64,000 nt of DNA. Origin: Candidatus Sungiibacteriota bacterium. Lineage in GTDB: Bacteria > Patescibacteriota > Minisyncoccia > Sungbacterales > SURF-37. This document shows positions 6,144-51,000 of the stretch, piece after piece. Every line of letters starts with the position of its first letter. The stretch's first letter is position 1. The notes beneath the pieces are model-generated. The model saw only the letters and a program-made list of their open reading frames with translations, was not told the DNA's origin and did not search any database. A program made the position numbers and the translations under genes. Location of the stretch: NCBI GenBank assembly GCA_016203665.1, contig JACQMJ010000004.1, positions 68,214 to 132,213 of the forward strand, given 5' to 3'.

Positions 6144-9100
6144 TCATGCCCTGCGAATGCCGAGCTTAATGGCGCCGTTGTCAAGCTCTACGTCCCGGGT
6201 AATCGCAGTACTCCATTTTCCTCCGATTTCAATACGGGCCGCGCCCGCCTCGCGCTGAATAAACGGCGACCAGCGCTCAATCAGTGCGGCGATATTTCCG
6301 GCGCCCGATATCTGCACGCGCACGAGCTCACCGGGTTTCAATCCGGCATCACGGCGCAATTCCTGGATGTTCCGCACGAGTTCACGCACCAACCCTTCCT
6401 CACGGAGCTCGGTGGTGATCGTAGTGTCGAGCTTAACTTCGTCGGCGAGGCGCGGGTCAATCACTACGGTTTTCACGTTCACCTCGTCCTGAAGGAGCGT
6501 AAGCAATCCGGGAACTTTTAACCTGGAACTTTTAACTTCCAACTTCGTCAATGGCTGGCGCACCCTAAGCCCGGCTTTCGCCCGCTCGGCCAGCGCCAAC
6601 GCCGCAAGGCGCCGCACCTCGGCCATGCCATCCAGCAAAGCTTTTAGCTTTTGGCTTTTAGCTTTTAGCTTGGCCGTCGGCTTGCTCGCCGTAGCTTTAG
6701 CGGAGGCGGGCCAGTCCCGCAGATGCACGCTCTCCTCCCTAAGTCCGAGTTTTGGCTTGAGCTTTTGGTAAATCACTTCTGAAAGAAAGGGCGTGAACGG
6801 AGCCATAAGTTCTGTGAGCTGAAGCAAAACAGCACCGTGAACAGCTGATGCGGCTTCCCTTGCGGCCGATGATTCCGGCCGCTGGAACCGCCGCCGCGAG
6901 CGGCGTACGTACCAATTTGAGAAATCCTCCACGATGAAATAGTCGAGTAGCCGCGCCGCACCAACAATGTCGTATGCATCGAGTCGTCCCGTTACTGCAG
7001 CCGTAAGTTCATCAATTCTTGCCATCACCCACCGATCCAATACGTTCGCGCTTTTAACTTTTAACTTTTGCTTGCCCGCCGTAGCCTCGGCGAAGGCGGG
7101 ACTTTTAACTTTATCCACGTACGTGTCAAAGAACACGAAGCTGTTCCAAAGCGTGGAAAGTGCACCGCGCAGGCGAAGGAGAATATCCTTCTCGTCAAAG
7201 CGCTTGGGATCGCCCGGAGCGTTTACGGTATAGAAGTACCAGCGGATAGCGTCAGTGCCGTATTTGGCGATCATTGGCAGTGGTTCAATGACATTGCCGC
7301 GGGATTTGGACATTTTCTGGCCGTTTTTATCCAGCACGTGGCCAAGTGAAATGACGTTCCGGTAGGACGTGCCGCGGCCCAGGGCCGTGGAAACTGCCAA
7401 GAGCGTATAAAACCAGCCGCGGGTCTGATCAATGGCTTCGCATATATAATCGGCGGGAAACAATAGCTTTTTACCTTTGACTTTTGACTTTCGACCTTCA
7501 GCGAAGGCGAACGGATAGTGAGCCTGAGCAAACGGCATGGCCCCGGAATCAAACCATACATCGCATACCTCCGGCGCCCTTCGCATCTTACCGGAGCACT
7601 TTCTACACCGCAGGCGGATCTCATCAGCGTACGGCCGATGCAGGTCGAGCTCTCCGGTATCATTGTACGGCCAGTTATGGAGGCGGATAGCCCGGAACTC
7701 GGCCGGTTCAAGATAAGGCGAGGATGGGTAATCCGCTTCAGGCAAACCTTCAAGCGCGGCCATGAGGACCCAAGACGGATCGCCGTGCGTCACGACAAGC
7801 GCCCGCTTGCCCGGGTGCTTCTTTTGAATGGCAAAGACTGCGGCTATCATCCGAGCCCGTACTTCACGGAGGTTTTCGGCGCCGCGGGGCCCGTCAGTGA
7901 AACGGGCGGCAAAATTTGAAAATGAAGCGCGAAATTCATCAACCGGCTGTCCCTCAAAACCTCCGATATTTATATCGGTAAGCTCGGGTAAAGTTTCTAT
8001 GCGTTTAATGCCAAGCGCCTTGGCCACGATTTTAGCCGTTTCCTGGGCGCGCAAAGAAGGCGAGGCGACAATTGCTTGAATCCCTTCTCTTTTCAGCCGC
8101 CTAGCGGCGAGAAGCGCATCGTCCTTGCCGCGAGCTGTCAAAATATTCTTGCCGTCGTTCGCCGGCGAGGGATTTACCAGGCCGTTTACATTATGAAGCG
8201 CCTCGCCGTGGCGCATAAGAATGAGTGTCGTCGGCTGCGGGTCCAGATCGTCAAGCTCCTTAAGCGAGCCGATGATGCGCACCGCATCACACTTTTCGCA
8301 CTGCCACGCCGGCAAAGGGGTGCCCCAGTAGCGCTCGCGCGAAAAGGCCCAGTCGCGCGCCTCGCGGATGAATTCACCGAAGCGACCGTGCTTTAAGTGC
8401 TCCGGCACCCAGTTGATTCTCTTGTTTTCGGCAACGAGTTCCTTCCGGAGTGCGCTCATCTTCACCCACCAGGCTTGGCGCGCATAGTAAAGGAGCGGCG
8501 TGTCGCAGCGCCAGCAAAAGGGATACTCATGCTCATACATTTCCTCGGCAAAAAGCAGGCCTCTCTGTTTCAGCGATCCGATTATGGCGTCCTCGGTTTT
8601 AGGGTCCTTTACGAACAGTCCGCCGAGGCCTTCGCCAAGATTATTTATGAAATGTCCGGTCTCATCCACGGTGTGGAATTTCGGGAGGCCGATCTTGGCG
8701 CCGAGGCGGTAGTCGTCCTCGCCGTACATCACGGCCGTATGCACCACACCCGTCCCCTCCTCCATGGCGACGAAATCGGCCGGATATACGCGGTGCGATT
8801 TTTCATTCTGCAATTCCGGCACGGAAAAAAGCGGCTCATATTCAAGACCGATGATCTTCTTTCCCCAAAACACGTCTATGTCATCAAGCATCGTCCGGTT
8901 GCGGTATTCCGGCGGGAACACGCCTTTCTCAATGAGCGCATCAAGGGTTTTATGCCCCAGCACAACCCAACGCCCTTTTGCCTCGGGATCGGGCACCGAA
9001 ACATATTCTTCTTTTGGATTAACGGCGAGGGCCACGTTCCCCGGCAGGGTCCAGGGCGTAGTTGTCCAGGAAAGAATGGAGGTATTCTGCCATTGGCGGG

Positions 9101-9752
9101 ATGCGGCTTTGATGCGGAACCGCACATAGACCGAGCGGTCTTTCACGGTCGCATAGCCGAGGCCGAGTTCGTGCGTGGAAAGCGCTGTCCCGCAGCGCGG
9201 GCACCATGGCACGACCTTGAAGTCCCGATAGAGAAGTTTTTTCTCCCAAAAGGACTTAATGATCCACCAAAGCGTTTCTATATAGGAAGGTTCGGAGGTG
9301 ATGTACGGACGCCCGAGATCCAGCCAGAAGCCGATGCGTTTCGTGAAGCCATCCCACTCGGCCTTGTAGCGCCATACTGATTCGCGGCACTTGGCGTTGA
9401 ACTTCGCGATGCCGTAGCGCTCAATGTCTTTTTTTGATTTCAGCCCGAGTTCCTTTTCCACCTGAATTTCAACCGGCAGGCCGTGGGTATCCCAGCCGGC
9501 TTTCCGCTCGACATGATACCCCCGCATGGTCTGGTAGCGCGGGATCAAATCCTTGAAGGCGCGGCTTTCAAAATGATGGATGCCGGGATTGCCGTTGGCG
9601 GTCGGCGGTCCCTCGTAAAAGACAAAACGCTTGCCGCGTTTGGTCTTGGCAAGGGTCTTCTCGAAAACCTTGTTCTCCTCCCAAAACTTGAGAACTTCCT
9701 CCTCGCGTTTCGGGAGGTTCAATTGACGCCCGTCATCGCGCATCTCGGCCAT
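6144..9752 (-). CDS. ileS: isoleucine--tRNA ligase with an inserted histidine-phosphatase domain
   Basis: 1202-aa ORF with class I motifs: PGIHH (HIGH-type), WCPRCGT, DQTRGWFY and KMSKSRGN. A ~195-aa foreign domain is inserted (listed as a separate feature). Confidence 0.95.
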   Translation of the reverse strand: MAEMRDDGRQLNLPKREEEVLKFWEENKVFEKTLAKTKRGKRFVFYEGPPTANGNPGIHHFESRAFKDLIPRYQTMRGYHVERKAGWDTHGLPVEIQVEKELGLKSKKDIERYGIAKFNAKCRESVWRYKAEWDGFTKRIGFWLDLGRPYITSEPSYIETLWWIIKSFWEKKLLYRDFKVVPWCPRCGTALSTHELGLGYATVKDRSVYVRFRIKAASRQWQNTSILSWTTTPWTLPGNVALAVNPKEEYVSVPDPEAKGRWVVLGHKTLDALIEKGVFPPEYRNRTMLDDIDVFWGKKIIGLEYEPLFSVPELQNEKSHRVYPADFVAMEEGTGVVHTAVMYGEDDYRLGAKIGLPKFHTVDETGHFINNLGEGLGGLFVKDPKTEDAIIGSLKQRGLLFAEEMYEHEYPFCWRCDTPLLYYARQAWWVKMSALRKELVAENKRINWVPEHLKHGRFGEFIREARDWAFSRERYWGTPLPAWQCEKCDAVRIIGSLKELDDLDPQPTTLILMRHGEALHNVNGLVNPSPANDGKNILTARGKDDALLAARRLKREGIQAIVASPSLRAQETAKIVAKALGIKRIETLPELTDINIGGFEGQPVDEFRASFSNFAARFTDGPRGAENLREVRARMIAAVFAIQKKHPGKRALVVTHGDPSWVLMAALEGLPEADYPSSPYLEPAEFRAIRLHNWPYNDTGELDLHRPYADEIRLRCRKCSGKMRRAPEVCDVWFDSGAMPFAQAHYPFAFAEGRKSKVKGKKLLFPADYICEAIDQTRGWFYTLLAVSTALGRGTSYRNVISLGHVLDKNGQKMSKSRGNVIEPLPMIAKYGTDAIRWYFYTVNAPGDPKRFDEKDILLRLRGALSTLWNSFVFFDTYVDKVKSPAFAEATAGKQKLKVKSANVLDRWVMARIDELTAAVTGRLDAYDIVGAARLLDYFIVEDFSNWYVRRSRRRFQRPESSAAREAASAVHGAVLLQLTELMAPFTPFLSEVIYQKLKPKLGLREESVHLRDWPASAKATASKPTAKLKAKSQKLKALLDGMAEVRRLAALALAERAKAGLRVRQPLTKLEVKSSRLKVPGLLTLLQDEVNVKTVVIDPRLADEVKLDTTITTELREEGLVRELVRNIQELRRDAGLKPGELVRVQISGAGNIAALIERWSPFIQREAGAARIEIGGKWSTAITRDVELDNGAIKLGIRRA
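7653..8244 (-). other. histidine phosphatase (PGAM/CobC-like, branch 1) domain inserted in frame within ileS
   Basis: The motifs TTLILMRHGEALHN, SPSLRAQETA, DINIGGFEGQ and ALVVTHGDPSW supply the RHG, second Arg, Glu and distal His. The insert is flanked by the conserved IleRS blocks WQCEKCDAVRIIGSLKEL and DLHRPYADEIRLRCRKCSGKMRR. Confidence 0.8.
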
Positions 9753-13518: not shown

Positions 13519-13965
13519 ATGCCCGTACTAGCAACCAGCCGCCGCGCCGAATTTGACTACGAGATCCTCGAAACATATGAGGCCGGCCTTGAACTTTTCG
13601 GGTTTGAAGTTAAATCAGTGCGTGCCGACCGCATGAACTTGGCAGGAGCGTTCGTGCTCATGCGCGGCGGAGAGGCATGGCTCGTCAATGCCGCCATCCC
13701 GCCCTACCAGGCCGCCAACACCCCGGCCGGCTACGATCCGGAACGTCCGCGAAAGCTCCTCCTACATCGCCGCGAGCTAAAGGAACTTATCGGCAAATCC
13801 GCGCAAAAGGGCTTGACTTTGGTCGCTTTACGGGTGTACACTAAAGGCCCGCGGATTAAAATCGCGTTCGGGCTTGCCCGCCGGAAAAAGACGTACGACA
13901 AGCGCGAGCGCATCCGCGAACGGGAAGATCGGAAAAAAATAGAACGGACCCTGCGCGAACGCTAG
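13519..13965 (+). CDS. smpB: SsrA-binding protein SmpB
   Basis: 148-aa ORF: ATSRRAEFDYEILETYEAGLELFGFEVKSVR...KLLLHRRE. Confidence 0.95.
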   Translation: MPVLATSRRAEFDYEILETYEAGLELFGFEVKSVRADRMNLAGAFVLMRGGEAWLVNAAIPPYQAANTPAGYDPERPRKLLLHRRELKELIGKSAQKGLTLVALRVYTKGPRIKIAFGLARRKKTYDKRERIREREDRKKIERTLRER

Positions 13966-14340
13966 GGGGTGATAGGCCTCGACGAAATATTGTTCGCTCA
14001 AGGGGCAGGCCGAGGGCGCTTGGGACACCTCGCTAAAAACCCGCAACCAATAAGTGCAAACTTATTCAAAAACGCCTTTAGTCCTGCTCTTGCAGTAGCC
14101 TAACGGCGTCCCCGCTCCGGTAAGCCGGAGCGGCATCGGCGGACGGATGCTCGATACGTCCTCACCGGTGTCACTTATCGAGCTGGGCCGCGGAACTCCG
14201 GTACCGCGGCCGAGATGCACCGGAAAAGCGTTGGAGGATTTTGCCCGGTTTAACCGCCAATGCCCATACCAGCCGGGCTACGCCTGTAAACCTCATGAGC
14301 CGGCATATTCCGGACGGGAGTTCAATTCTCCCCACCTCCA
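13965..14340 (+). ncRNA. ssrA: tmRNA (SsrA)
   Basis: The 5' GGGGGUG pairs with the 3' CACCUCC, including the G3:U alanine identity pair, followed by discriminator A. The T-arm is GGGAG-UUCAAUU-CUCCC. The tag reading frame runs from GCA at 14056 to TAA at 14103 and encodes ANLFKNAFSPALAVA. Confidence 0.9.
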
Positions 14341-14347
14341 TACCATG

Positions 14348-14374
14348 AAAACCGCCCCCTGAAGGGCGGTTTTC
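14348..14374 (+). terminator. intrinsic terminator after ssrA
   Basis: aaaaccgccc-cctgaa-gggcggtttt hairpin with a T-run. Confidence 0.75.
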
Positions 14375-14447: not shown

Positions 14448-14963
14448 ATACCCGTTATCCTCCGACGCTACCGCATAAACAATCAGATCCGCGCTCCGCG
14501 CGTGCGCGCCATTGACGAGACCGGGAAAAACCTCGGCGAAATGGGGCTGGAAGACGCGTTTAAGATCGCCGAGGAGCGCCGGCTCGACGTGATCGAAATC
14601 GCGCCGACTGCCAACCCGCCGGTGGTGAAAATAATGGATTTCGGCAAGTTCAAGTACGACGAGGCGAGGAAAGAGCGCGAGCACCGGCCGAAGGAAAAGC
14701 ACGTCTCGGAGGTAAAAATGCTCCGCATCGGGTTCAAAACGGGCCGGCACGATCTTGAACTCCGCGCCAAGCAGTCCGAAGAGTTTCTGGCTGAAGGCCA
14801 CAAGGTTAAAGTAGACATGGTGCTCCGCGGCCGCGAAAAGGCTCTTCGCGACTTCGCCCGTAAGAGATTTGCCGAGTTCCTTGCGCTCATCCCTGGACAC
14901 GCGCTTGAGCAGGGCATCAAGGCCACGCCGCATGGGTTCACGGCAATCTTGAAACGGGCCTAA
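14448..14963 (+). CDS. infC: translation initiation factor IF-3
   Basis: The track ORF starts at GTG 14502, but the in-frame upstream sequence reads (I)PVILRRYRINNQIRAPRVRAIDETGKNLG, the conserved IF-3 N-terminus. A non-ATG start (ATA 14448 or ATC 14457) is therefore likely, as is usual for infC. The exact start is uncertain. Confidence 0.85.
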   Translation: MPVILRRYRINNQIRAPRVRAIDETGKNLGEMGLEDAFKIAEERRLDVIEIAPTANPPVVKIMDFGKFKYDEARKEREHRPKEKHVSEVKMLRIGFKTGRHDLELRAKQSEEFLAEGHKVKVDMVLRGREKALRDFARKRFAEFLALIPGHALEQGIKATPHGFTAILKRA

Positions 14964-15030
14964 GGCTAAAAAGACAAAGACGAACGCAGTATGCCTTTGT
15001 CTTTAGTCCTCCAACTTTCGTCCCACGAAC

Positions 15031-15624: not shown

Positions 15625-15632
15625 CGGAATAG

Positions 15633-15665
15633 AAAACCGCCCGGCCATTTGCCGGGCGGTTTTCT
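15633..15665. terminator. bidirectional intrinsic terminator between rplT and the ZIP gene
   Basis: aaaaccgcccggc-cattt-gccgggcggtttt hairpin, with an A-run and a T-run on its two sides. Confidence 0.8.
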
Positions 15666-15739
15666 ATAATCTCTTGCAGAGCACCGCGGGCGGCTCGCCT
15701 CGCCGAAGCTTTGGCGAAGCGCGGGAAGCCCGTGGGTAT

Positions 15740-16500: not shown

Positions 16501-16854
16501 CTAATGACGAACGACTAATAACTTCGGCGAGTGGATGCGATAGCGAGGAAGGCTGATGCGCCCGGCCGAAATCTCTACGCCCTCCGCCAGGAGTTTTTTT
16601 ATCTTCCCAGCAGTTCCGCCGGGCAGGCCGAAGCCGCCGACCCGACCGTCCGAGCGAACCACGCGGTGGCAGGGTGTTTTGGGATCGCGGTTTTGTCCGA
16701 GAACGGTTCCGACGCGGCGCCAGGCCCGGGGACAGCCCACGGCGCAGGCAAGGTCAGCGTACGTGGCGACATGGCCGCGGGGGATGCGCCGCGTTGCGGC
16801 GTACACCCCGTACCACAACTGCTGGGATTTTGGCTTGAAACATGCTCTTGCCAT
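16501..16854 (-). CDS. ogt: methylated-DNA--protein-cysteine methyltransferase (MGMT/Ogt DNA-binding domain)
   Basis: PCHRVV active-site motif in TPCHRVVRSDGRVGGF. Short single-domain form (117 aa). Confidence 0.88.
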   Translation of the reverse strand: MARACFKPKSQQLWYGVYAATRRIPRGHVATYADLACAVGCPRAWRRVGTVLGQNRDPKTPCHRVVRSDGRVGGFGLPGGTAGKIKKLLAEGVEISAGRISLPRYRIHSPKLLVVRH

Positions 16855-16867
16855 GCGTCGCTACGGT

Positions 16868-17401
16868 TTACCTCCGCTCGCGGTGGTGAGGTGCCCGCGT
16901 TGTGGTACGGGGTAAATTTTTTTCGATAAATTCATAGGCCTGCTTCAAGATGGCCTGGGTATTCTTGTACCGCGCCACCTTCAACGCTTCGCGGTACGTG
17001 AACCAGGCAAACCCCTCATGCTCTTCGGATATGGCTATATGGCGCGTTCGCGCCTCAACGAGATAATATATGACGATCTTGAATACCTGGCCCCGCTCTG
17101 CCGCCGGCTTGGCATTAGAAGTCGCGGGCTGGGCATAGCGATCAAAAAATGTGTAGCGGTCCGTGGCGCGGAAGCCCGAGAGGACCCGCATATCCTGATG
17201 CTTTAATCCAGTTTCCTCCTCCACCTCGCGCAGAAACGCCTGGGTGGCGCGCTCGCCCTCCTCAAGCTTGCCCTTGGGAAAATTCCAGTAGTTACGGCCG
17301 TGGTAAAGAAGAAGAAACTTCAAATGCCCGCCTGCCTGCCGGTCAGGCAGGTCGCGGCCGCGGCGGAAAATTACGGCTCCGGCTGAAATAACTCGCCTCA
17401 T
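16868..17401 (-). CDS. NUDIX hydrolase
   Basis: Nudix box GKLEEGERATQAFLREVEEETGL. ATGA overlap with polX. Confidence 0.88.
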   Translation of the reverse strand: MRRVISAGAVIFRRGRDLPDRQAGGHLKFLLLYHGRNYWNFPKGKLEEGERATQAFLREVEEETGLKHQDMRVLSGFRATDRYTFFDRYAQPATSNAKPAAERGQVFKIVIYYLVEARTRHIAISEEHEGFAWFTYREALKVARYKNTQAILKQAYEFIEKNLPRTTTRAPHHRERR

Positions 17402-19839: not shown

Positions 19840-20212
19840 ACCATTATGCTAACACACTGGCCGCCAGAAGCCGTGACCTCCCGCATATTCGCCTACTGCC
19901 GGAGCCATTATACGAACAAGATGTAATGACTTCCCGTCGTGTGGTGAACGAAAAAGCCCGCTCGCTGTAAGGCCCGGAGAACATCCCGTGGCCGGAGCGC
20001 GGACAGGCGTTCGCGCATGGAACTAGAGCAAAATCCTCACCTTCTCCTTTACCGGATCAAGCTGCAGCTTACCGGAGAGTTTCCTGCAACATGCGTCCGT
20101 GATAGTTCAAATGGGGCAGTAAATCAACCACGCATCCCTCGAGCGCGGCGGTGCCGCCTCTCGGAACGCTCGATCAAGGAGCGCCACCGCCCTATGCATG
20201 CCCCTCCAAGAG

Positions 20213-20386
20213 CCCCACGCGTATATTTTTCTCCATCGGGGTCGCGGAGCGACGGGTTGCCAGTCGGCAACCCAGGGCTTTTGCGAGGGGCAAAAGGGCA
20301 GTGGGATCCCTGGGCTGAAAACCGTCCCGCGATTCGCGGGACGGTTTTCTAGAAATGGAGGCGTGAAGAAAAATATATGCGCGGGG
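20213..20386 (+). repeat. stem-closed intergenic element, family copy 1 (GGCAGTGGGA...GAGGCGT core)
   Basis: The outer arms ccccacgcgtatatttttctcca (20213-20235) and tgaagaaaaatatatgcgcgggg (20364-20386) are complementary. The core motifs are at 20297-20306 and 20358-20364. A perfect 15-bp hairpin, gaaaaccgtcccgcg-att-cgcgggacggttttc, spans 20317-20349. Confidence 0.75.
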
Positions 20387-27127: not shown

Positions 27128-27198
27128 TCCTCTATTTTATACTAACCCTCCCTTGCGCAAAATAAAGATATTCAGTGTGGCAGGATTTGATTGTGATG

Positions 27199-27271
27199 CG
27201 TCCCCGAGAGGATTTGAACCTCTGGCCTCTTCCTTCGGAGGGAAGCGCTCTATCCGCTGAGCTACGGGGAC
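27199..27271 (-). tRNA. tRNA-Arg (anticodon CCG)
   Basis: Hand-folded 73-nt cloverleaf: GTCCCCG TA GCTC AGCGGATA GAGC G CTTCC CTCCGAA GGAAG AGGCC AGAGG TTCAAAT CCTCT CGGGGAC G. CCA is not encoded. Confidence 0.92.
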
Positions 27272-30121: not shown

Positions 30122-30155
30122 CCCATACATGATTACGATCGTAATCATGTATGGG
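30122..30155. repeat. perfect 34-nt palindrome
   Basis: cccatacatgattacgatcgtaatcatgtatggg is its own reverse complement, centred on cgatcg. Confidence 0.95.
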
Positions 30156-31539: not shown

Positions 31540-31657
31540 GTGAACCCCGTTACAACCCGGCCTAAAGGCCGGGGCCTCCAATGAGGCAGTGGAACTCTCC
31601 ATTCCTCCCCGCCCTGAAGGGTGAGGCGTCCAGGTTGTAACGGGGTGAATAGTTCAC
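31540..31657 (+). repeat. stem-closed intergenic element, family copy 3 (GGCAGTGGAA...GAGGCGT)
   Basis: The outer stem is gtgaaccccgttacaacc (31540-31557) paired with ggttgtaacgggg[tgaatag]ttcac (31633-31657). The inner hairpins are cccggcc-taaa-ggccggg and gcctc-caat-gaggc. The core motifs are at 31585-31594 and 31623-31629. Confidence 0.7.
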
Positions 31658-41422: not shown

Positions 41423-41695
41423 ATGCCCATCACCAAATCCGCAAAAAAGGCGCTTCGCCAGTCAAAACGCCGCGCCGCCCAAAACCTCCGCCGCAAGAAC
41501 GCATATAAGAAGCTTTTGAAACAAATTCAAAACCTTGCCGCCGCAGGAAAGACAAAGGAAGCCGAGGCCATTGCCCCGCAGGCCTATAAAGCCCTGGATA
41601 AGGCGGCAAAAAACGGCGTCCTGAAGCCGAACGCCGCCAGCCGCTATAAATCCCGGCTCATGACTTGGATCCGCAAATCCAAAAGCGCTGCCTAG
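41423..41695 (+). CDS. rpsT: 30S ribosomal protein S20
   Basis: MPITKSAKKALRQSKRRAAQNLRRKNAYKKLLK. Confidence 0.93.
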   Translation: MPITKSAKKALRQSKRRAAQNLRRKNAYKKLLKQIQNLAAAGKTKEAEAIAPQAYKALDKAAKNGVLKPNAASRYKSRLMTWIRKSKSAA

Positions 41696-41714
41696 GCAGC
41701 GCTTTTGGATTTGC
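41673..41714. terminator. 42-nt perfect palindrome shared by the convergent 3' ends of rpsT and holA
   Basis: gcaaatccaaaagcgctgcctaggcagcgcttttggatttgc. The stop codons of both genes lie in its centre. Confidence 0.7.
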
Positions 41715-42609
41715 GTTCCAGTACCAGTTTCACCAACGTCAGAGACGAGGGCAGGCGGCCGATTTTAAGCTCGGTATCCGCCCGGATGAGCTCGCCGAAC
41801 CGCCGGCCGAGAGACGCCGCATCGAGGCTTCTCGTGAGTTCTATGTTCTTACGCACCGCGAAGGGATGCAATCGCCCGGCGAGCGATTCAAGCGTGCCGC
41901 TTTGAACGCCCTTCCATACGAGCGCTGCGGTCCGCAGCGCACCGCCGAGCGAAGCGAGCAAGTAGACGGCATCGAATCCGCCAGCGAGCAGCCGCGCCAG
42001 CGGCGCATACGCGCTCCGGCGGTGCCGGAGGAATGCATCGGTGAAATCCCAGACTTCGGTTGCCGTGCGCTCCATGGTCCGGAGCGACCAACCGTCTCGA
42101 ATCTTCTCGAGCTCGCTTACGAGCGCCCAGAGATCCGAGCCGTGGACTCTAAGGAGCAACCGCTTCTCCTCGGCCGGCAGTTTCAGTCCGCGCCGGGCCG
42201 CCTCCGCCTCAAGCCATCGCATAGCTGCGGCCGGGGCGAGCGGCTTGAACTCCTGCGCCTTTTCCGCGTGCGCCATGAGGACGGCTGCCAGAGGTGATTT
42301 TGCCGGAAGTTCCTCTTCCCAAAATACGAACGTTATGTCCGAATCCTTGGCCCAACGGCCGATCTCGCGCGTGAGGTGGGCGGTGACCTCGGCCGGAGTC
42401 CGCGACGCCCGTTCAAGTACAATGAGCTCTTTTTCGGAGAAGAGCGACGCGGTCCGGCCAACAGCCAAAACCGCCTGCGGGTCCTCGGCGGCGTCAATGC
42501 GGGTCAGCGCCGTAGCGGGCGCTCCGGCCTTCTCTCGGAACGCTTTAATGATCTCACGCATTTTGGCGCGGCTGCGGTATGTATCGGGACCGTGGAGAAA
42601 ATAAATCAC
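41692..42609 (-). CDS. holA: DNA polymerase III delta subunit
   Basis: MIYFLHGPDTYRSRAKMREIIKAF; 305 aa; typical compact HolA. Confidence 0.8.
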   Translation of the reverse strand: MIYFLHGPDTYRSRAKMREIIKAFREKAGAPATALTRIDAAEDPQAVLAVGRTASLFSEKELIVLERASRTPAEVTAHLTREIGRWAKDSDITFVFWEEELPAKSPLAAVLMAHAEKAQEFKPLAPAAAMRWLEAEAARRGLKLPAEEKRLLLRVHGSDLWALVSELEKIRDGWSLRTMERTATEVWDFTDAFLRHRRSAYAPLARLLAGGFDAVYLLASLGGALRTAALVWKGVQSGTLESLAGRLHPFAVRKNIELTRSLDAASLGRRFGELIRADTELKIGRLPSSLTLVKLVLERKSKSAA

Positions 42610-47829: not shown

Positions 47830-49494
47830 ATGGTTACCTTTGAGGAGGGAAAGCAGCAGGAGCAACTCCTAAAGCTCCGACGGAAGGAGGAAGAGGACAC
47901 GGTGAAGCTCCTCGCCGAGAAGTACCGCCTGCCCTACGCTGACCTCTCGGCAATGCCCATCAATGTAGATGCACTGGCACTCGTCCGGGAGGATGACGCC
48001 CGGGCGGCAGAGCTTGCCGTCGTCCAGAAGACTGGACAACGCCTCGAGATCGGCGTCCGGAACCCCGAACACCCGAAGACAAAGGCCATCCTCGAGGACC
48101 TCGCCGGCCGGCGCTACACGCCGGACCTCTTCCTCGTATCCAAGACAAGCCTCGAAAAGGCCTGGGCGGTCTATACGAACGTCACTCGCCGCGCCCGCGT
48201 CATTTCGGGCGAAGTGGAAGTTTCCGCCGAGCGCCTTGCCCAATTCCGGAGCAAGGTCAAGGCACTTCCCGACATAGCATCGCTCCTGGGTTCCGTAGAG
48301 ACGAAACGCGCCACGGACATTCTGGAAATCATCCTTGCCGGGGCGCTGGCCGTTGACGCCTCGGACGTCCACCTCGAACCGCAGTCCGAGGCCGTACGCC
48401 TCCGCTACCGCCTCGATGGCGTGCTGGCCGACGCCGCAAGCCTGCCCAAGGAGAGCTACCGCTTCATTCTCTCCCGCATCAAACTTATCGCCGAAATGAA
48501 GCTGAACGTTCAGACGCGGGGCCAGGATGGGCGCTTCACCATCCGCGCCGAGGGCGCGGATATGGAGGTGCGCGCCTCAACCCTGCCCGGGCCCTACGGC
48601 GAGAACATCGTGCTGCGGGTGCTGAACCCCAAGGCCATTGCCATCACCTTTGCCGAGCTCGGCATGCAGCCTTGGATCGGACGGGCCATGACGGAGGAGC
48701 TTTTAAAGCCTAATGGCATGATACTGACCACCGGGCCGACGGGCTCCGGCAAGACCACAACGCTCTACGCCTTTGTCCGCGAGGTGTCGAAACCCGGCAT
48801 CAAAATTATCACCCTCGAGGATCCCATCGAATACCGCCTGGCCGGCATCGAGCAGACGCAGGTTGAACCCGCCGCAGGCTACGATTTCGCCTCCGGCCTC
48901 CGCTCCATCCTGCGCCAAGACCCGGACGTCATCCTGGTCGGCGAAATCCGAGACCTGGAAACGGCGCAAACGGCCATGCATGCCGCGCTGACCGGCCATC
49001 TTGTCTTCTCCACGCTGCATACCAATAACGCCGCCGGCACCATCCCGCGGCTCCTGGACCTCGGCGTGGATCCGGCCATCATGGCCCCGGCCATCAACGT
49101 GGCCATGGCCCAGCGGCTCGTCCGCAAACTCTGTCCGAAGTGCAAGCAGGAATACCAGGCGACGAAAGACGAACGACAAACGCTAAAAGCCGAAAATGAA
49201 ACCCTGCCCGCTGGCGTCGAAAAACCGGCGCTGCCAGAACCGCTTACGCTCTGGAAAGCAGCCGGCTGCGGCGAATGCAACAACACCGGCTACAAGGGCC
49301 GGATTGGAGTTTTTGAAATCATCCTAATAAACGACACCCTTGAAGAGCTCGTTTTCCGGCGGCCGTCGGAGGTGGAAATAAAAGAAGCCGCCCGAAGTCA
49401 GGGACAGATCACCATGCGCCAGGACGCCATCCTGAAGGTACTGGCCGGCATCACCGACCTGCCCGAGGTCGAACGGGTGGTGGGAGCGGGATGA
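47830..49494 (+). CDS. pilB: type II/IV secretion system ATPase (PilB/GspE family)
   Basis: Walker A GPTGSGKTTTLYA, Asp box, Walker B ILVGEIRD, His box, and the tetracysteine CPKC...CGEC. Confidence 0.92.
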   Translation: MVTFEEGKQQEQLLKLRRKEEEDTVKLLAEKYRLPYADLSAMPINVDALALVREDDARAAELAVVQKTGQRLEIGVRNPEHPKTKAILEDLAGRRYTPDLFLVSKTSLEKAWAVYTNVTRRARVISGEVEVSAERLAQFRSKVKALPDIASLLGSVETKRATDILEIILAGALAVDASDVHLEPQSEAVRLRYRLDGVLADAASLPKESYRFILSRIKLIAEMKLNVQTRGQDGRFTIRAEGADMEVRASTLPGPYGENIVLRVLNPKAIAITFAELGMQPWIGRAMTEELLKPNGMILTTGPTGSGKTTTLYAFVREVSKPGIKIITLEDPIEYRLAGIEQTQVEPAAGYDFASGLRSILRQDPDVILVGEIRDLETAQTAMHAALTGHLVFSTLHTNNAAGTIPRLLDLGVDPAIMAPAINVAMAQRLVRKLCPKCKQEYQATKDERQTLKAENETLPAGVEKPALPEPLTLWKAAGCGECNNTGYKGRIGVFEIILINDTLEELVFRRPSEVEIKEAARSQGQITMRQDAILKVLAGITDLPEVERVVGAG

Positions 49495-49579
49495 GTTTAA
49501 TCAGTTTAAGGAGTTTAATGAGTCGGTGGATTTAAAAAAGGGGGGAAAGAAAAAACTCCCAAAATTTCCATCTAAGCGA

Positions 49580-49683
49580 GGCCGCCTAGGTTTTTGTCCA
49601 TCGGGTTGGCAGTGGGATCCCTGGGCCGAAAATCGCTTCGCGATTTTCTAAAAATAGAGGCGTGGACAAAAACCTAGGCGGCC
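49580..49683 (+). repeat. stem-closed intergenic element, family copy 2 (GGCAGTGGGA...GAGGCGT core)
   Basis: The outer arms ggccgcctaggtttttgtcca (49580-49600) and tggacaaaaacctaggcggcc (49663-49683) form a perfect 21-bp complement. The core motifs are at 49608-49617 and 49657-49663. The inner hairpin is gaaaatcgc-ttc-gcgattttc. Confidence 0.8.
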
Positions 49684-49692
49684 GAGCGCTTA

Positions 49693-49862
49693 CCTCCCCG
49701 GGCTGTGGGCAATTCTCCGGCTTGGGAGCGCGGAGGTCAGGACTGACGATTCGGGTACCCCAGTCGAACCCGCGACAAGGCGGAAACCAGGGTGCCGGGT
49801 AAGAGAAAGTCCCCATTCAGGCCAACGCGAATTGTACCTGAATTGCCCACAGCCCGGAGAGG
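49693..49862. repeat. 170-nt element bounded by 23-nt inverted repeats
   Basis: cctccccgggctgtgggcaattc (49693-49715) matches the reverse complement of gaattgcccacagcccggagagg (49840-49862) at 22 of 23 positions. Confidence 0.8.
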
Positions 49863-49989
49863 CCTACCGGCCGACCGGAAAGCAACGAGAAAGAGGGCTC
49901 GCGCCCTCCTCATTTCCTAAAAAATTCCAACCGGTTACTGCCTTAATTATATCAATTCTACATAGGTCTGTCAACTTACTTCCTGTCCC

Positions 49990-51000
49990 ATGCTTACCGA
50001 GCCCAAAGCTAAACGCGAGGACCAGGCGCTGGATCAAACGCTGCGGCCGCAGCGGTGGGATGAATTCATTGGCCAGGATCCGGTGAAGGATAACCTTAAA
50101 ATCCTGATCGCCGCGGCGAAAAAACGCGCCGAGTCCATTGAGCACGTGCTCCTCTACGGCCCGGCGGGCCTTGGCAAGACCTCGCTCGCCCATTTGATCG
50201 CCCGCGAGCTGAATACCAACATCCGCATCACCTCCGGCCCGGCCGTGGAACGCGTCGGCGATCTCGCCTCCATCCTGACGAACCTTCTGCCCGGGGACGT
50301 CCTTTTCATTGATGAGGCGCACCGCCTTAATAAACTGATCGAGGAAGTGCTCTACCCGGCTATGGAATCGCGCACGCTCGACATCATCATCGGCAAGGGG
50401 CCCTCGGCCCGCACCATTCAGTTGGAACTTCCGCCCTTCACGCTCATTGCCGCGACCACCCGTATAGGCATGCTCTCCGGGCCGCTGCGCTCGCGCTTCG
50501 GCGTCACCTTTCGGCTGGACTTCTATTCCACGCGCGACATCGAGCGGATTCTGGAGCGCTCCTGCCAACTCCTCGGGGTATCGGCCGACCCGGATGCCAT
50601 CGCGGCCACGGCCGCGGCGGCGCGCCAGACCCCCCGCGTGGCCAATCGCCTCTTAAAGCGCGTGCGCGACTACGCCACAGTCCACGGCAACGGACGGCTC
50701 ACGGCCGATGCGGCCCGGCGGGCGCTCGTACTCCTGGAAATAGATGCGCTTGGCCTTGAGCCGACTGACCGGCGCATCCTGGACGCGATCATCAGAAAAT
50801 TCCAGGGCGGACCGGTTGGACTCTCCGCGCTCGCGGCGGCCACGGCCGAGGAAGAAGACACCATCGAGGAAGTCTATGAACCCTATCTCATGCAGTTGGG
50901 ATTCCTGGAGCGGACCGCGCGCGGCCGCGTGGCCACGCGACTGGCCTTTGAGCACCTCGGAATCACGCCGCGCAACCAGCAACCGCTCCTTGAGGCCTAG
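49990..51000 (+). CDS. ruvB: Holliday junction DNA helicase RuvB
   Basis: [23 protein letters not shown]...[14 protein letters not shown]... Confidence 0.96.

Follow-up and report, generated by a model that had tools for sequence, protein, structure and literature searches.

A stem-bounded element between pilB and ruvB of a Candidatus Sungiibacteriota bacterium, probably a small non-coding mobile cassette

A 64,000-nt stretch of contig JACQMJ010000004.1 from a Candidatus Sungiibacteriota bacterium (the window) carries, at positions 49580-49683 between the genes pilB and ruvB, a 104-nt element designated E1, which is probably a small, non-coding mobile cassette bounded by inverted repeats and comparable to a MITE (miniature inverted-repeat transposable element) or an intervening sequence. 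It is best read as a member, or a hitch-hiker, without an open reading frame (ORF), of a family of cassettes that carry either GIY-YIG nuclease genes or ORF-less cargo. The stem that closes the element would be its terminal inverted repeat and not an RNA gene's P1 helix. Genomes of the candidate phyla radiation (CPR, or Patescibacteria) are small and tightly packed, and what can still invade them matters; neither an Rfam family nor a published description of E1 was found.

Structure and distribution of E1

The element at pilB-ruvB, copy 2 of three in the window, is closed by two 21-nt arms at 49580-49600 (GGCCGCCTAGGTTTTTGTCCA) and 49663-49683 (TGGACAAAAACCTAGGCGGCC), which are 100% complementary, carry no strand assignment and leave 62 nt between them; the closing-stem sequence is CCGCCTAGGTTTTTGTCC, and the right arm has the same sequence as its counterpart at 9684-9704 of the related locus L006. 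From left to right the interior reads TCGGGTT, GGCAGTGGGATCCCTGGGC, a single C, the hairpin GAAAATCGC-TTC-GCGATTTTC, TAAAAATA, and GAGGCGT, so that the perfect 21-bp closing stem and the interior described in a first-pass annotation of this DNA are reproduced exactly. TCGGGTT (49601-49607, plus strand) is the junction at which, in alignment with L006 9547-9704, a long form of the element carries around 54 extra nt folded into two hairpins. The 19-nt core GGCAGTGGGATCCCTGGGC (49608-49626, plus strand) is identical in copy 1 (20297-20315) and in locus L001 from a Saccharibacteria metagenome-assembled genome, and differs by one base in L006. The inner hairpin (49628-49648, unstranded), symmetric and of 9 bp, is in the style of this genome's bidirectional terminators, and the GAGGCGT motif (49657-49663, plus strand), which abuts the right arm, occupies the same position in all three window copies as well as in L006. 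Folded as RNA, copy 2 reaches -58.6 kcal/mol on the plus strand (z = -7.9) and -56.5 kcal/mol on the minus strand (z = -9.9), with none of 200 shuffles folding as well; z-scores for E1 overall range from -7.5 to -10.7. The flanking genes pilB (47830-49494) and ruvB (49990-51000) were both confirmed by Pfam.

The pilB-ruvB locus of six related genomes (L006, L008, L010, L012, L015, and L017) was obtained via RuvB homologues, and all six keep the order pilB-spacer-ruvB. RuvB of the window itself shows 100% identity to a protein from a Candidatus Sungbacteria metagenome-assembled genome. At the orthologous site E1 is present only in L006/L007 (GCA_030697585.1; 9547-9704), where it takes the long form, measures 158 nt and has both of copy 1's additional hairpins; the site is empty in L012, L008, L010, L015, and L017. 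L012, which has no E1, is an equally close relative: its copy of E2, a structured RNA of the same spacer considered below, is 93% identical to E2 of the window and 98% to that of L006. Over their shared part, copy 2 and the L006 copy are identical at 102 of 104 positions, and their arms at 21 of 21, within a background in which ruvB DNA is 79% identical and E2 93% identical between the two genomes. Because 102/104 identity in E1 stands against 79% in ruvB, the element would be much younger than the split between the window and L006, or would have passed from one to the other. Its site is the same in the two genomes, which is also the habit of homing-type elements. The filled and empty spacers are too diverged to fix the exact insertion boundaries. 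Judging from this distribution, E1 at pilB-ruvB is a young insertion and not a conserved RNA gene.

The contig end from the Saccharibacteria genome (L001) holds the identical 19-mer together with the same short-form junction, CCA-CTCGGGCT-GGCAG, and thus the short form would be a circulating variant and E1 would cross CPR lineages. Scans with the exact 19-mer returned L001 and two chance coding matches from a genome collection, two chance coding matches from a metagenome collection, and none from a viral collection, the pattern being too strict in that the L006 copy differs at one base. Neither a degenerate core nor the paired-repeat pattern gave a match in the viral collection, and copy 1 had no BLAST match in collections of phages and plasmids.

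Within the window, the 19-mer occurs twice and the pattern GGCAGTGG-N30-55-GAGGCGT three times (copies 1, 2 and 3, all on the plus strand), with 0.00 occurrences expected for each. Copy 1 is a long form of 174 nt (20213-20386, plus strand) that begins 5 nt downstream of the stop codon of a minus-strand MFS gene and shows 80% identity to the L006 copy over 164 nt. Its terminal repeat, of about 22 bp with 3 mismatches, keeps the inner TTTTTnTCCA part, while the outer part is different yet complementary. Comparison of copy 1 with the L006 copy reveals seven compensatory pairs, six in the terminal repeat and one in an inner hairpin; an inner-hairpin compensatory change in E1 reads CTTTTGC/GCAAAAG versus CTTTCGC/GCGAAAG, and the terminator-style hairpin of copy 2 shows, relative to copy 1, a further compensatory change of C:G to T:A (GAAAACCG/CGGTTTTC versus GAAAATCG/CGATTTTC). 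On the minus strand directly after copy 1 (20100-20212), a strong Shine-Dalgarno-like GGAGGGG precedes an ATG and a 35-codon ORF within a 286-nt unannotated spacer; this ORF may be a gene remnant, as at copy 2.

Copy 3 is a tentative and diverged member of 103 nt (31544-31646, plus strand), which fills the spacer between minus-strand DUF192 and WYL/RNase H-like genes and is bounded by an ACCCCGT...ACGGGGT inverted repeat of 14-17 bp. It is a distant relative, undetected by a hidden Markov model (HMM) built from the other copies, and its membership is based on the two motifs, their placement against the stem, and the stem itself. Copy 3 has no terminator-style hairpin and sits inside an operon; copies 1 and 2, which have the hairpin, stand at the ends of transcription units. 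The proposal of a three-copy family holds, three motif matches standing against an expectation of 0.00, with the reservation that copy 3 is only distantly related, and the family exceeds what a shared terminator style would explain. Long (158-174 nt) and short (104 nt) forms coexist, copy 2 lacking 16 + 38 nt relative to the long form in the alignment with L006. Copy 2 had been described as the shortest copy and as defining the family core; copy 3, however, is 103 nt against its 104 nt, and the L006 ortholog of copy 2 is of the long type, 158 nt in length and with both additional hairpins. A candidate fourth copy at 16805-16913 was discarded, since it shares the ACCCCGT repeat class with copy 3 and not the core. 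The core was likewise dismissed as protein-coding sequence: its frames are not conserved between copies, and neither tblastn nor HMM search shows GIY-YIG similarity.

Terminal repeats shared with GIY-YIG and ORF-less cassettes

The 15-mer CCGCCTARRTTTTTG occurs twice in the window, once in each arm of copy 2, against 0.05 expected, and in the fetched related loci it is found solely as inverted pairs bounding cassettes. As CCGCCTARRTTTTTG only bounds cassettes in these loci and in the window, the closing stem of copy 2 would be the terminal repeat of a cassette family with interchangeable cargo. The family repeat has the form CCGCCTA(R)(R)TTTTT...AAAAA(Y)(Y)TAGGCGG, and its inner extension covaries; the 15-mer is exact in copy 2 and the L006 copy, copy 1 has the inner TTTTTnTCCA part only, and copy 3 has no match.

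One such cassette lies in the ortholog of the copy-3 spacer (L019, from DUF192 to the WYL/RNase H-like gene), which carries an 87-aa GIY-YIG nuclease gene (cassette 1, 1527-1814) flanked by CCCGCCTAAATTTTTGTCC and GGACAAAAACTTAGGCGGG, with the junction TTTTTGTCCAT and the left junction TTTTTGTCC-AT both as in E1. Another cassette, this one frameshifted, follows 0.8 kb downstream in the same locus (2639-2927), and its arms covary (GCCC/GGGC). Homologous GIY-YIG cassettes of the same architecture occur before divIC in L023 (9980-10269), between two transketolase halves in L025 (9982-10269), and between rplB and rpsS in L027 (9978-10272). All encode proteins of 87-88 aa within inverted repeats of 19-25 bp, of which the outer part is conserved (CCCGCCTAAATTTTT...AAAAACTTAGGCGGG) and the inner extension covaries (GTCC/GGAC, GCACTT/AAGTGC, GCAT/ATGC, and ACAC/GTGT). 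The stop codon of the ORF falls within the right arm, the ATG of the next gene comes directly after this arm, and (T)ATG is usually found on the left flank too.

The same repeats also enclose other cargo. In L027, two highly structured ORF-less copies of about 255 nt (z = -6.1) are located at ~6826-7081 and 14507-14763, where they occupy the S10/L3 and L5/S14 spacers within a ribosomal-protein operon, and this cargo gave neither an Rfam match when searched at E<=10 nor a GIY-YIG remnant. A solo right repeat lies at 14976-14990 of the same locus. The ORF-less copy B of L027, together with L019 cassette 1, L023, and L025, has (T)ATG on both sides and a downstream ATG abutting the right repeat. 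At E1, by comparison, the nearest start is the remnant ATG 8 nt away from copy 2, with none on the other side, and in L006 the distance is 17 nt. In the cassettes, position 10 of the repeat further shows an A/G asymmetry that is constant (TAAATTTTT versus AAAAACTTA), whereas the arms of copy 2 are perfectly symmetric with a CCTAGG centre.

A second class of stem-closed intergenic insert is bounded by ACCCCGT...ACGGGGT-type repeats around unrelated interiors of 65-89 nt, and it is this class whose repeat copy 3 uses. Members were located at 16805-16913 in the window, 12734-12850 in L006, 12396-12512 and 20571-20663 in L010, and 14575-14677 in L008; they often fill operon spacers exactly (yebC/ruvC in L006 and L010, rnpA/yidC in L010), overlapping the downstream start codon. 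Viral relatives of the GIY-YIG proteins (<=47% identity) have no bounding repeats, and in the literature that could be searched no GIY-YIG gene enclosed by repeats of this kind, whether in CPR or in operons, is described. In the spacer upstream of the WYL gene, L020 (~2700-2750) and L021 (~600-660) contain GGCGTGGACAAAG and GGCAGTGGACAAGC, which are similar to the right junction of E1 (GAGGCGTGGACAAAAAC) and may represent a decayed cassette end or a -35-like box.

The minus-strand unit between pilB and ruvB

In all relatives the pilB-ruvB spacer is long and holds the same minus-strand unit, made up of a promoter, a short hairpin whose tail is U-rich, E2, and a gene for a small membrane protein. 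In the window, the promoter is a sigma-70-type TTGACA-17-(TG)TATAAT (49946-49974, minus strand) with a 12/12 match and an extended -10 element, which would drive the E2/E1 unit divergently from ruvB; this TTGACA-17-TATAAT promoter by the ruvB start is perfect or near-perfect, and its position is kept in all relatives while its surroundings vary. The short leader hairpin with its U-rich tail follows at 49908-49893 (minus strand), and then E2 at 49693-49862 (minus strand), a stem-closed structured RNA of around 170 nt with a 23-nt closing stem that does not belong to the E1 family.

E2 is present in all seven Sungbacteria loci examined, and RNAalifold applied to the seven sequences predicts 63 pairs, of which 15 show compensatory changes. 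The minus strand fits better: its pairs are more numerous, its energy is lower, and it has several invariant G-U pairs, which on the plus strand would become A-C. No Rfam match was obtained for E2, either in the window and three relatives at gathering score or at E<=10 around copy 2. RNase P and 6S RNA were set aside as identities, there being no model match and the predicted fold being a four-way junction. E2 is a candidate new riboswitch-like leader or small RNA, and is a better candidate than E1 for a new regulatory RNA.

In the relatives, E2 precedes a small membrane-protein gene of 73-192 aa whose product begins ATGGAAAG and for which there was no secure Pfam match, only a sub-threshold Colicin_V hit for the L012 protein (E = 0.006). 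The 3' stem arm of E2 in L012 has GGGGAG 6 nt before the membrane-protein ATG. In the window this gene has been deleted, and what is left, at 49533-49571 (minus strand), is its ATGGAAA start (49571-49565) and a terminator-like hairpin with a T-run (49560-49533; the terminator-like site in the scan spans 49560-49543), which together probably mark where the E1-containing minus-strand unit has its 3' end.

E1 copy 2 is positioned between E2 and the remnant ATGGAAA start, and it therefore lies inside the minus-strand transcription unit, its core antisense to it. Copy 1 follows the minus-strand MFS gene and copy 3 stands between the minus-strand DUF192 and WYL genes, such that the GGCAGTGG...GAGGCGT core is antisense to local transcription in 3/3 window copies. 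The first-pass annotation had held that the orientation of the core differs among the copies; given the conserved minus-strand unit at copy 2, this is not supported.

Alternative explanations and the mobile-cassette reading

The inner hairpin invites the idea that E1 is a host-selected cis element at transcription-unit ends, namely a bidirectional terminator or insulator, or an RNase III processing module, the suggestion that it terminates pilB being included here. As had been proposed, it resembles the terminators of this genome, sharing its A-tract/stem/T-tract build with the hairpins at 14348-14374, just after the transfer-messenger RNA (tmRNA) 3' end, and at 15629-15667, to which copy 1 is 82% identical over 38 nt. 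The start of copy 1 just past the MFS stop codon, the location of copy 2 between convergent pilB and E2 transcription, and the maintenance of the hairpin by compensatory change are likewise consistent with this. Such a role is nonetheless unlikely to account for the element. Relatives without E1 serve the same spacer with other hairpins, copy 3 lacks the hairpin and is found within an operon, and in L006 an intact membrane-protein gene, transcribed in the same direction, lies downstream of the element. The hairpin ends in UUUUC, paired with GAAAA, and its U-tract is just 4 nt; an intrinsic-terminator consensus scan does not call it, though the scan also misses the reference hairpins after tmRNA and at 15629-15667. 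A 21-bp outer stem, moreover, is not required for termination.

Very low folding energies, compensatory changes in P1 and the inner hairpins, and an invariant core common to a Saccharibacteria genome might instead be expected of a stand-alone family of structured small RNAs, in which the 19-nt core would serve for binding or catalysis and the closing stem would be a P1 that covaries; GUCGCG of the long form could form an alternative pairing with the inner hairpin's 5' arm. This is distinctly improbable, given that no promoter-like site is common to the E1 copies, copy 2 being inside a unit driven by the E2 promoter, and that no terminator lies outside the stem. Rfam 15 offered no relative, with no match to E1 in the window at gathering score and only chance-level matches at E<=10 around copies 1 and 2; the chance matches met across the window, three relatives, copies 1 and 2, and the L027 cargo were mir-609, STnc350, PrrB/RsmZ at 12.8 bits, and similar. 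The absence of E1 from the orthologous site in most close relatives and from around 400 kb of related sequence, its antisense position at every copy, and strand evidence that points both ways (see below) also count against an RNA gene. Three further candidates failed to fit on a reading of the sequence: a sigma-54 promoter (TGGCA-N7-TTGC), which does not suit copy 1; an integron attC site with R''/R' boxes, which fails here in a context of housekeeping genes; and a twister-like ribozyme, whose motif order is inconsistent. Of the two functions that the first-pass annotation had favoured, the independently transcribed small RNA is opposed by the missing shared promoter, the insertion polymorphism, and a stem held in common with protein-coding cassettes, and it is the DNA-level function that the evidence favours.

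There is only a slight chance that E1 represents a GIY-YIG cassette gone to decay, a pseudogene remnant between intact repeats. The shared repeat and left junction with L019 cassette 1, as well as the existence in L019 of a frameshifted cassette, would suit such decay. A six-frame search with a GIY-YIG HMM, however, finds nothing in any E1 copy or in the window, the interior is conserved (19/19 in the core, with compensated hairpins) rather than decaying, and unrelated ORF-less cargo occurs within the same repeats.

Under the mobile-cassette reading, E1 would have inserted between E2 and the start of the small membrane-protein gene, which would later have been deleted in this genome. Movement would take place as DNA, probably through mobilisation in trans by the nuclease of a GIY-YIG cassette, or through homing-like copying into the same site. 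When E1 is transcribed, here from the minus strand and continuing E2 at its 3' end, the 21-bp stem would close the insert off and form a plausible RNase III substrate, and the inner A-tract/stem/U-tract hairpin could act as a bidirectional stop, incidentally separating pilB read-through from the E2 unit. Features of MITEs are apparent in the terminal inverted repeats (21/21 bp in copy 2), the small size, non-coding nature, and multiple copies (103-174 nt, three in 64 kb, no coding signal), and the presence/absence polymorphism, with the site filled in the window and L006 and empty in L012, L008, L010, L015, and L017.

Several observations weigh against a mobile cassette. E1 shows no clear target-site duplication, at most a 2-bp GA at copy 2, compared with (T)ATG on both sides of most GIY-YIG and ORF-less cassettes; copy 2 is flanked by GA/GA, the L006 copy by AA/GA and copy 3 by TC/TC, with no such pair at copy 1, and these flanks are too short to tell from chance. 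The outer repeat half differs between copies 1 and 2 and the copy-3 repeat is unrelated, unlike in classical MITEs, whose repeats are conserved among copies. The repeats are shared with cassettes that encode a GIY-YIG nuclease and not a transposase, and GIY-YIG enzymes are not known to act as transposases. Furthermore, tblastn and a six-frame HMM find no GIY-YIG gene or remnant in the 64-kb window, so that a mobilising enzyme in this genome is hypothetical. The known copy number is low, with five E1 copies found in total and no further copy in ~400 kb of related CPR loci by HMM, BLAST, or motif searches. Finally, the invariant 19-nt core and the compensatory changes of the inner hairpins suggest selection on a folded molecule, beyond the needs of selfish DNA, and the G-U versus A-C evidence on strand is mixed, with P2a favouring the plus strand and the copy-1 stem favouring the minus strand.

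Comparison with known systems

The closest analogues of E1 are MITEs and, above all, the Correia repeat enclosed elements of Neisseria (CREE, also called NEMIS). CREE consist of inverted repeats around a core, fall into classes of 153-157 and 104-108 bp, and encode no transposase; their position varies between related genomes, they are associated with gene loss, and their transcripts fold into long hairpins that RNase III is able to cut (PMC2649163; PMC10969869). E1 similarly exists as several short intergenic copies without coding capacity, has a conserved core set between inverted repeats, comes in two size classes (158-174 and 104 bp), varies in position between related genomes, is linked to gene loss, and encodes no transposase. 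Unlike CREE, which duplicate TA, E1 is without a clear target duplication; its outer repeat varies between copies, with another repeat altogether in copy 3, its known copy number is tiny, it has no sequence similarity to CREE, and its sole repeat-sharing partner encodes a GIY-YIG nuclease instead of a transposase.

Insertions in CPR rRNA genes provide a second parallel. There, GIY-YIG genes are reported exclusively from non-intron inserts (neither group I nor group II). Many inserts are <200 bp and ORF-less, and removal or tolerance of the inserts is believed to occur at the level of RNA, via flanking stems and RNase III (PMC11270868). The bacterial group, the shortness of the inserts, and the GIY-YIG association are shared, and the GIY-YIG and ORF-less cassettes may be the protein-operon counterpart of these non-intron inserts; E1 and the cassettes, however, lie between protein-coding genes and not in rRNA, and the two are likened by description, not by sequence.

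Free-standing GIY-YIG homing endonuclease genes, such as seg of phage T4, are also located between conserved genes, with presence or absence at the same site varying among close relatives. Near-identical E1 copies in diverged backgrounds fit homing-like copying of this kind, and the 87-aa proteins are predicted nucleases. E1, in contrast, has no ORF, and homing genes are not known to be bounded by inverted repeats of 19-25 bp. With bidirectional intrinsic terminators E1 shares the A-tract, G+C stem, and T-tract of its inner hairpin, and from them it differs in the enclosure of this hairpin within a 21-bp outer stem alongside an additional conserved core, in the short U-tract, and in the absence of the hairpin from copy 3.

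A wider and more tentative proposal, possible though doubtful as it stands, is that E1, the 87-aa GIY-YIG cassettes, and the ORF-less cassettes form one undescribed class of CPR mobile elements, namely hairpin-bounded, "operon-safe" mini-cassettes at or next to gene starts, including those of ribosomal-protein operons. The 19-25-bp stem would on this proposal be selected for re-joining the upstream stop codon and ribosome-binding context to the downstream start, or for excision by RNase III, and would render the insert nearly harmless; the tiny GIY-YIG protein would serve as the mobility enzyme, and E1 would be non-coding cargo riding the same ends and spreading between CPR lineages. If true, very small stem-ended mobile cassettes, some with a minimal GIY-YIG nuclease, sit between the genes of essential operons, and the non-intron GIY-YIG insertions of CPR rRNA genes become linked to a general mechanism. 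For annotation, stem-closed conserved cores of this type resemble novel RNA genes and would be better read as mobile DNA.

Some minor features of the window may also be recorded. The pilB stop codon is directly trailed by three tandem 9-nt units, GAGTTTAAT / CAGTTTAAG / GAGTTTAAT (49493-49528), and relatives have other short tandem units at the same place. The tmRNA gene itself spans 13965-14343 (134.6 bits; tag ANLFKNAFSPALAVA), and a tRNA-Arg(CCG) gene is found at 27198-27271. Two perfect loop-less palindromes occur at 30122-30155 (17-nt arms) and at 41672-41715 (22-nt arms, CGCAAATCCAAAAGCGCTGCCT/...), the latter at a convergent gene junction and with the CCTAGG centre that is also present in the arm of E1 copy 2.

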